Shown here piece by piece: positions 4,694 through 4,779 of a stretch of DNA of 64,000 nucleotides. Position numbers and translations under genes: made by a program. The notes below the pieces were generated by a model that was not told the DNA's origin, made no database searches, and saw nothing but the letters and a program-made list of their open reading frames with translations. The DNA comes from Escherichia phage iGC_PHA_EC001: sequence record OR437326.1, one strand, 5' to 3'. Within the stretch, counting starts at the first letter, position 1. Every line of letters starts with the position of its first letter.

Positions 4694-4779
4694 GATGAGT
4701 TGGCTGAATGGTTTAAGCGGCGGACTGTTAATCCGTGTTCGAAAGAACAATATAGGTTCGAATCCTATACTCATCGCCA
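4694..4779 (+). tRNA. class II (Ser-like) tRNA with anticodon loop reading GTT; identity unresolved
   Basis: Acceptor GATGAGT/ACTCATC, 3-bp D stem, anticodon stem GCGGA/TCCGT with loop CTGTTAA, 15-nt variable arm hairpin, T arm ATAGG-TTCGAAT-CCTAT, G73, CCA. Confidence 0.45.

Follow-up and report, generated by a model that had tools for sequence, protein, structure and literature searches.

The gene and the proposed reading

Examination of a 64,000-nucleotide stretch of Escherichia phage iGC_PHA_EC001 (OR437326.1; the window) reveals that positions 4694-4779 of its + strand encode a genuine phage tRNA that reads asparagine codons and carries a long, class II-type variable arm. To our knowledge, textbooks restrict bacterial class II tRNAs to Leu, Ser, Tyr and Sec. 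We propose that this gene specifies what is probably a functional phage tRNA-Asn with a class II-type core, which decodes AAC and AAU and receives its asparagine from the host asparaginyl-tRNA synthetase (AsnRS). Its structure, its family, the distribution of that family and the pattern of identity determinants are described below; the amino acid that it would carry and the role that its arm might play we infer from them.

ARAGORN reports 4694-4779 (+) as an 86-nt tRNA with GTT starting at position 34, and with the tRNA covariance model of Rfam 4694-4776 gives a full-length match of 62.1 bits (E 3e-12; gathering score 29 bits), in which 12 inserted nucleotides fall in the variable region. The single-sequence minimum free energy (MFE) fold is a five-arm cloverleaf with a 7-bp acceptor stem and a 5-bp T stem. 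The same gene is a tRNA-Asn-GTT according to tRNAscan-SE in MZ726793, a GenBank genome of 97% identity, and GenBank relatives label it tRNA-Asn. Its elements are as follows, a slash marking the cleavage site in the AriB motif:

4694-4779, + strand: whole gene, an 86-nt class II-shaped tRNA with anticodon GUU and encoded CCA (ARAGORN; Rfam RF00005; MFE cloverleaf; tRNAscan-SE annotation of MZ726793)
4694-4700, + strand: acceptor stem 5' strand GAUGAGU, partner ACUCAUC at 4769-4775, giving G1-C72, A2-U71 and U3-A70 (parse; 7 of 7 pairs covary)
4703-4718, + strand: D arm GCUGAAUGGUUUAAGC, with a 3-bp stem (G10-C25, C11-G24, U12-A23), G13 and A22 unpaired, and G18G19
4719-4736, + strand: position 26 and anticodon arm, G-GCGGA-CUGUUAA-UCCGU, containing the AriB motif U36AAUC/C41 (direct comparison with E. 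coli asnT/U/V/W)
4727-4729, + strand: anticodon GTT, positions 34-36, reading AAC/AAU
4737-4751, + strand: variable region of 15 nt, with the hairpin GUUC-GAAA-GAAC at 4737-4748 and then AAU, unpaired, at 4749-4751
4752-4768, + strand: T arm AUAGG-UUCGAAU-CCUAU
4776-4779, + strand: discriminator G73 and encoded CCA end

The RNA combines the features of an elongator tRNA, namely the cloverleaf, G18G19, U33, a GTTCGAATC-type T loop and a discriminator followed by CCA, with those of class II, a variable region of more than 10 nt with its own stem-loop and a 3-bp D stem. Written as 5' unpaired nucleotides, base pairs, loop and 3' unpaired nucleotides, the layout of its arm is (0,4,4,3), next to (1,5-7,4-5,1) for Ser and (1,3,3,3) for Tyr in E. 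coli. An alignment of 21 enterobacterial-phage homologues with E. coli asnT shows pairing in 99.4% of cells and compensatory change at 17 of 24 pairs, including four of four in the variable helix, which is 100% paired, and seven of seven in the acceptor stem. None of 500 shuffles matched the observed pairing score, and slid controls paired at 32-48%. Covariation supports all five helices.

These results bear out the initial annotation where it had described a class II tRNA with GUU at positions 34-36: the programs and the MFE fold concur on the anticodon, and fold, parse and covariation recover the 3-bp D stem, the 15-nt variable-arm hairpin and G73. Its fallback, a mis-fold or a Leu/Ser tRNA with an unusual loop, is not upheld, as the programs and covariation agree on the arm and none of the programs gives it an anticodon of Ser, Leu or Tyr. 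The same agreement of ARAGORN, Rfam, tRNAscan-SE and covariation rules out an intron or a mis-parsed tRNA, and a pseudogene is ruled out because the sequence is 100% identical in 22 phage records, is conserved in several families and retains its CCA.

A family of long-arm tRNA(GUU) genes in virulent phages

A BLAST search with the 86-nt sequence recovered 233 of 50,697 phage records at a cut-off of at least 80% coverage with the arm included. Carriers of the long-arm tRNA(GUU) include Tequintavirus and Epseptimavirus (both T5-like), Winklervirus (T4-like), rV5-like phages, Mydovirus, the jumbo phage Muenster and Erwinia phages. A pattern scan of IMG/VR, combining the Asn anticodon arm, a long spacer and the T loop, yielded at least 89 distinct long-arm GUU tRNAs of 81-91 nt, or at least 108 with cellular matches included. 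A length-neutral scan of viral contigs with the 15-mer CGGACTGTTAATCCG identified 13 of 120 stretches (~11%) as long-arm loci. When the long pattern was sought in one genome per species across 185,579 species, it returned 75 stretches, ~20 of them true long-arm genes and nearly all of these within arrays of 10-36 tRNA genes, e.g. in Micromonospora and Methyloprofundus. In six such loci (L244, L245, L255 and L305 from Micromonospora/Verrucosispora, L307 and L261), chromosomal arrays hold 21-36 tRNA genes within 8 kb and a single long-arm tRNA-Asn is the Asn gene of the array; in actinomycetes its length is 89-90 nt. Class II tRNAs that read Asn codons are common and conserved across unrelated virulent phages, including model T5-like and BASEL phages, and nearly absent from cellular chromosomes.

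We define the family by the CUGUUAA loop, G73, a mostly GNRA-capped hairpin of 2-5 bp with 3-4 unpaired 3' nucleotides and a position in a phage tRNA cluster or a tRNA array, and the window tRNA fits this definition. The typical arm has 3-4 bp and 3-4 unpaired 3' nucleotides, with a GNRA-type loop in 58 and GAAA in 43 of the 108 matches listed. The same architecture and anticodon arm are found in the long-arm tRNA-Asn of phage 5 (AJ604531 tRNAN), Bas33, T5_ev212, the T4-like CHI14, rV5-like phages, Mydovirus and Muenster, which align to the window tRNA at 69-82% identity and in the T5-like phages also adjoin an RNA3-like RNA; they differ from it in their acceptor stems (GGGUCGU, GGGUAGU, GACGAGG and others), in an arm of 3-5 bp and, in some, in a 4-bp Asn D arm. 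The phage 5 sequence is that of the commonest family member. Long-arm Asn genes fill the Asn slot of T5-like, T4-like and rV5-like tRNA sets and of arrays of 23-36 genes, and in T5-like phages the long Asn and the short Asn of T5 share the same Cys-Asn-RNA3-Asp slot. The tRNA-Asn of SP15 is probably also of the long-arm type, judged from a BLAST query span and identity equal to those of the long-arm T5_ev212 gene rather than from its own sequence; it has been expressed in E. coli from a strong promoter, with toxicity not reported. A literature search, with the older T5 tRNA papers outside it, returned no description of long-arm tRNA-Asn in phages. The family is large and apparently undescribed, being carried by virulent phages and tRNA arrays and rare in cellular genomes. 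For annotation, this means that heuristics based on length or shape can mislabel such genes, while labels based on the anticodon alone hide the unusual structure.

Tandem long and short tRNAs with the same anticodon, Asn among them in each case, were observed in nine loci (L014, L050, L052, L054, L080, L084, L086, L103 and L108); in L050, Cys, Pro and Asp also occur as long/short pairs. These tandem pairs suggest a parallel 'long-arm set', and raise the question of why some phages have parallel long and short sets with the same anticodons.

Identity determinants favor asparagine

What specifies Asn in E. coli is the anticodon, with all three of its bases, and G73 (PMC9976931), and these AsnRS determinants, G34-U35-U36 and G73, are all present in the window tRNA. 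Its positions 26-43 (18 nt) are identical to those of E. coli asnT/U/V/W, which also share G73, the encoded CCA and a GGUUCGA-type T loop but differ in being 76-nt class I tRNAs whose variable loop has 5 nt, whose D stem has 4 bp and whose acceptor stem begins with U1-A72/C2-G71/C3-G70. The window tRNA departs from the class I Asn body in its 15-nt variable region, its 3-bp D stem and G1-C72; a 4-5-nt variable loop, a 4-bp D stem and U1-A72 are typical of tRNA-Asn and not proven AsnRS determinants. At loci L006, L036, L057 and L120 the long-arm gene has an E. coli-Asn-like 4-bp D arm and is essentially asnT with an inserted arm.

Counts across the family follow the same pattern. Among the 89 distinct long-arm GUU tRNAs in the IMG/VR matches listed, G73 is found in 82, most exceptions resembling one-base parse offsets, and U1-A72, a hallmark of bacterial tRNA-Asn, in 53; pair 2:71 varies freely (GC 39, CG 35, UA 8, AU 7), as does pair 3:70. 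For comparison, 74 distinct phage tRNA-Ser in the collected loci have G2-C71 in 73 cases and A3-U70 in 68, and G1-C72 and G2-C71 are described as 'absolutely conserved' in bacterial tRNA-Ser. The window tRNA keeps G1-C72, but has A2-U71 and U3-A70 at the next two pairs. Bacterial and phage tRNA-Ser share with it the class II shape, G73, G1-C72, C11-G24 and unpaired G13/A22, and differ in having a Ser anticodon, G2-C71, A3-U70 and an arm of 5-7 bp with about one unpaired nucleotide. The unpaired-base count at the arm is one feature that separates class II identities; with 3-4 bp and 3-4 unpaired 3' nucleotides the GUU arm is Tyr-like, as against 5-7 bp and 0-2 unpaired nucleotides in tRNA-Ser. 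The Ser anticodon (NGA or GCU), which defines the gene family though it is not read by seryl-tRNA synthetase (SerRS), is replaced by GUU. The features that the initial annotation had called Ser-like hold for the class II shape and G73, but G73 is equally the AsnRS discriminator, the arm is Tyr-like, and pairs 2:71 and 3:70 are not those of Ser. Asn codons make up 58.9 per 1000 (5.9%) in the open reading frames (ORFs) of the window, a frequency at which wholesale insertion of Ser would be very costly.

Two further comparisons were uninformative on identity. A BLAST search for the tRNA in 5,426 E. coli genomes gave no useful match, and the host asn, ser, tyr and leu genes were compared directly. 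Body-only profile hidden Markov models for Ser, short Asn, Tyr, Leu, Lys and Cys did not separate the isotypes, scoring the Ser(GCU) tRNA of the window higher as Leu and Tyr than as Ser and the Asn body highest as Cys, and no conclusion on identity was drawn from them.

Class I isotypes other than Asn have long-arm forms too, represented by 70 distinct phage tRNAs (loci L007-L238; e.g. L019, L053, L054, L096), namely Cys(GCA), Thr(UGU), Trp(CCA), Met/Ile2(CAU), Glu, Gly, Pro, Asp, His and Ile(GAU). Their usual design is 0-1 nt, 3-4 bp, a GAAA-type loop and 3-4 nt, with the discriminator of the isotype kept (U73, A/U73 and G73 in Cys, Thr and Trp, respectively). The determinants of their own isotype are present in nine of 10 Cys (U73), 10 of 10 Thr (G1-C72/C2-G71) and four of four Trp (G73) tRNAs. 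Given that long-arm Cys, Thr and Trp tRNAs keep their own determinants, the arm is not a serine signature. Variable regions of ~21-25 nt with a conserved CCAGAUUAGGG-like motif are seen in tRNA-Ile(UAU) (L008, L022, L025, L026, L028, L029, L056, L222, L238 and others); these genes were long in 10 of 14 cases in a first set, and 15 distinct long ones were counted after further loci were added.

On the reading that we favor, host AsnRS would charge the GUU tRNA with Asn through G34-U35-U36 and G73, the core would be of class II type by virtue of its 3-bp D stem and short GNRA-capped variable hairpin, and the extra arm would be an isotype-independent add-on. The tRNA would thereby supply Asn decoding capacity in an AT-rich phage.

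Could the tRNA also accept serine?

Several observations weigh against charging by AsnRS alone. AsnRS is a class IIb enzyme that approaches its tRNA from the variable-loop side, and a long arm could hinder it; how a class IIb synthetase copes with such an arm, and whether ambiguity through SerRS arises, are questions that the family raises. Outside the anticodon and variable arms, the closest body among non-GUU tRNAs is that of the phage tRNA-Ser(GCU), at 86% in the compared parts, with notable differences at 2:71 and 3:70, and a partial SerRS set is present in the form of G73, G1-C72, C11-G24 and the long arm. In several phages long and short tRNA(GUU) genes lie side by side, hinting at non-redundant roles, and the long GUU tRNAs of L052, L053 and L054 have U73 or C73, which makes their identity especially uncertain. 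Our literature search found no published charging data for long-arm tRNA-Asn. Finally, according to AJ604531 (bacteriophage 5, T5-like), exchanging the anticodon of an 83-nt long-arm tRNA-Asn for CUA yields an amber suppressor, and an 87-nt long-arm tRNA-Thr(UGU) with CUA is likewise a suppressor ('effective').

Suppression by the CUA derivative implies that some synthetase charges the long form without reading GUU. For a tRNA with G73, G2-C71 and G3-C70 that is given CUA, the classical outcome is mischarging by glutaminyl-tRNA synthetase (GlnRS), as in su7 and su3-A73G. By analogy, GlnRS mischarging would explain the suppressor result equally well, SerRS being the other candidate. The GenBank record of T5 bears the opposite note for its short Asn and Thr tRNAs, CUA replacement of which gives no suppressor. 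Because T5 Asn and Thr are short, neither this note nor the T5 rescue data discussed below applies to the long form; moreover, the T5 and AJ604531 records disagree in the suppressor test on the short tRNAs for Lys, Pro and Trp as well, so the arm is not the sole variable.

A dual identity, in which the tRNA is mainly charged with Asn while SerRS yields a measurable Ser fraction and a low level of Asn-to-Ser ambiguity that is tolerated or exploited, is on balance unlikely, though it draws on most of the above. The elements that confer serine identity are, above all, the long variable arm, together with G73 and acceptor pairs, and the anticodon is ignored; the partial SerRS set is joined by a 3-bp D stem and a Ser(GCU)-like body, the long-arm homologue with CUA suppresses amber, and C2-G71, a known SerRS antideterminant, is missing from the window tRNA. 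However, G2-C71 and A3-U70 are absent from the window tRNA and unconstrained in the family, the arm is shorter than that of tRNA-Ser with another junction geometry, the suppressor result has its equally good GlnRS explanation and differs between the two GenBank records for other, short tRNAs too, and AsnRS would compete as long as GUU is intact. In contrast to the Ser(GCU)-like body of the window tRNA, that of the T5-type long-arm member is closest to tRNA-Lys.

A GCU tRNA at locus L210 combines a 20-nt variable arm with the acceptor GAUGAGA/UCUCAUC, the first six pairs of which are those of the long Asn tRNA of the window; it is without G2-C71 and A3-U70, and adjoins a canonical GGAGAGU tRNA-Ser(GCU) in the same locus.

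A possible role of the arm in evading anticodon-stem nucleases

The PARIS nuclease AriB cuts the host's Lys(UUU) and Thr(UGU) tRNAs as well as its tRNA-Asn(GUU) between positions 40 and 41 within the motif U36AAUC/A41, with C41 after the cut in Asn, and modelling suggests a second AriB contact at D-loop U16-U17 (PMC12409363). The copies carried by T5 are substituted around the cleavage site and together rescue growth and infection (PMC12409363). T5 proper (NC_005859, L315) encodes Asn and Thr(UGU) tRNAs of class I, 78 and 75 nt long, respectively, with positions 39-41 changed, while in Bas33 (HildyBeyeler), phage 5, SP01 and ~100 further T5-like phages both of these tRNAs bear the long arm and have an intact cleavage-site sequence. 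The same slots thus hold two designs, a short one substituted at 39-41 (T5, L315) and a long-arm one with the host-like UAAUC (Bas33 L316, phage 5 L320). The AriB-evading variants of T5 (PMC12409363, PMC11464382) share with the long-arm tRNAs the isotype set, including Asn and Thr(UGU), but T5 Asn and Thr are class I and substituted at 39-41, whereas the window tRNA and Bas33 Asn and Thr keep the cleavage site and have a long arm.

AriB targets Asn and Thr(UGU), the two tRNAs of T5-like phages that bear the arm, which points to a possible structural escape from tRNA-targeting immunity. The window tRNA keeps UAAUC/C exactly, so any resistance must come from the arm or the D loop. Our preferred guess is that the arm shields the tRNA from host anticodon-stem nucleases while the host-identical anticodon arm stays intact for AsnRS. 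More specifically, the GNRA hairpin beside the 3' strand of the anticodon stem might give tRNA-Asn resistance to such nucleases, e.g. AriB, an idea that we put forward tentatively and regard as less likely than not. By analogy, the same shielding would extend to Thr(UGU) in the T5-like group, perhaps also to tRNAs for Cys, Trp and Ile elsewhere, and would represent an alternative to the point-mutation route of T5. If the shield reading is true, Asn would form a fourth class II isotype family of the bacterial world, one confined essentially to viruses and tRNA arrays. Consistent with it, Bas33, which has long Asn and long Thr(UGU) tRNAs and is without tRNA-Lys(UUU), is rescued from PARIS by T5 tRNA-Lys alone, and T7, which has no tRNAs, needs Lys and Thr (PMC12409363). 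That Bas33 needs Lys alone fits its long-arm Thr, and possibly its long-arm Asn, being functional and not destroyed. As caveats, the source phage is without tRNA-Lys(UUU), Bas34's own tRNA-Asn, be it long-armed or short, is insufficient against PARIS (PMC12409363), and long arms also occur on isotypes not known as AriB targets. The variable arm is never mentioned in the PARIS/AriB paper (PMC12409363) or in van den Berg 2023. Beside the tRNA region of T5, gene T5.081 (L315 19618-20001) is annotated 'tRNA amidotransferase' and may bear on Asn/Gln-tRNA biology.

The retained motif also invites the idea that the tRNA is a decoy, i.e. a competitive sink for a tRNA-targeting defence nuclease such as AriB or for another tRNA-binding factor, with translation secondary. 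The authors of PMC12409363 raise inhibition of AriB by competition from over-expressed viral tRNAs, the window tRNA matches the host cleavage motif exactly, and some loci have both a long and a short tRNA for one anticodon. We consider this quite improbable, given that conservation extends to the acceptor stem, G73, the CCA end, the T loop and U33, as expected of a charged, ribosome-competent tRNA, and that the gene is the only Asn tRNA of a set matching the A/U-ending codons of the phage.

Comparison with recoding tRNAs

Nematode nev-tRNAs have Gly or Ile anticodons and are charged with Leu. They and the allo-tRNAs (Mukai et al., PMC5389517) share with the window tRNA a long arm combined with the anticodon of a normally class I amino acid; both are, however, without the identity set of the amino acid of their anticodon and are charged via class II elements, whereas the window tRNA keeps the full AsnRS set and has lost the SerRS acceptor set. 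Acceptor/T geometry also differs, being a canonical 7/5 in the window tRNA and 8/4 or 9/3 in allo-tRNAs. Outright missense decoding, in which a serine tRNA with an acquired Asn anticodon arm would insert Ser at AAC/AAU as the initial annotation had suggested, has the class II shape, the Ser-like body and these precedents in its favor but is very unlikely, and the comparison gives it no support, as every AsnRS determinant is kept in a host-identical anticodon arm, the SerRS acceptor pairs are lost, the gene is the sole Asn tRNA of phages in which Asn codons are this frequent, and relatives have the canonical Asn D arm.

The tRNA cluster and its RNA3-like neighbor

The source phage is a phAPEC8-like myophage (Phapecoctavirus), and the region 3800-6000 of the window is 96-98% identical to that of ~70 such genomes. 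Its tRNA cluster lies on the + strand at positions 3902-5819 and matches the A/U-ending codons of the phage; Asn(GUU) is its sole Asn tRNA. The genes around it run in the order Ser(UGA)-Ser(GCU)-Tyr-Asn-(RNA3-like tRNA-like RNA)-Thr(UGU), and the following features were located:

4250-4279, + strand: promoter-like site, TTGACA-18-TAGATT, its -10 preceded by TG, in front of the Ser-Ser-Tyr-Asn-RNA3-Thr run (consensus scan)
4288-4378, + strand: tRNA-Ser(UGA), missed by ARAGORN, 35.7 bits (below threshold) with the Rfam tRNA-Sec model, annotated by tRNAscan-SE in MZ726793
4384-4469, + strand: tRNA-Ser(GCU)
4600-4687, + strand: tRNA-Tyr(GUA), missed by ARAGORN, 39 bits with the Rfam tRNA model, annotated by tRNAscan-SE in MZ726793
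4786-4862, + strand: tRNA-like RNA directly 3' of the Asn gene (fold z = -4.3; aligns to T5 rna3 and loci L003 and L005)
5212-5241, + strand: promoter-like site ahead of the Gly...Met tRNA run (consensus scan)
5935-5953: terminator-like hairpin closing the tRNA cluster

The two upstream tRNA-Ser genes named in the initial annotation are real, but they are not the immediate neighbors of the Asn gene, tRNA-Tyr being situated in between. This tRNA-Tyr is labelled 'tRNA-Pseudo-GTA' in the record of one relative.

In the RNA at 4786-4862, which is unannotated in MZ726793, an acceptor-like stem of 7 bp is combined with the T arm GCAGG-UAUCGAAU-CCUGC and with a long 'anticodon' stem that ends in a 4-nt loop. 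This RNA is homologous to 'RNA3' of T5 and phage 5, a stable tRNA-like RNA that is annotated in both and lies directly behind tRNA-Asn there too. The presence of an RNA3 homologue behind tRNA-Asn in T5, phage 5 and the phage studied here suggests a shared Asn-RNA3 module. The near-consensus promoter-like sites at 4250-4279 and 5212-5241 have the common context AACTATTGACAAC, and promoter-like sites in total are no more numerous than in shuffles; the first of the two may mark the transcription start of the unit that includes the Asn gene.

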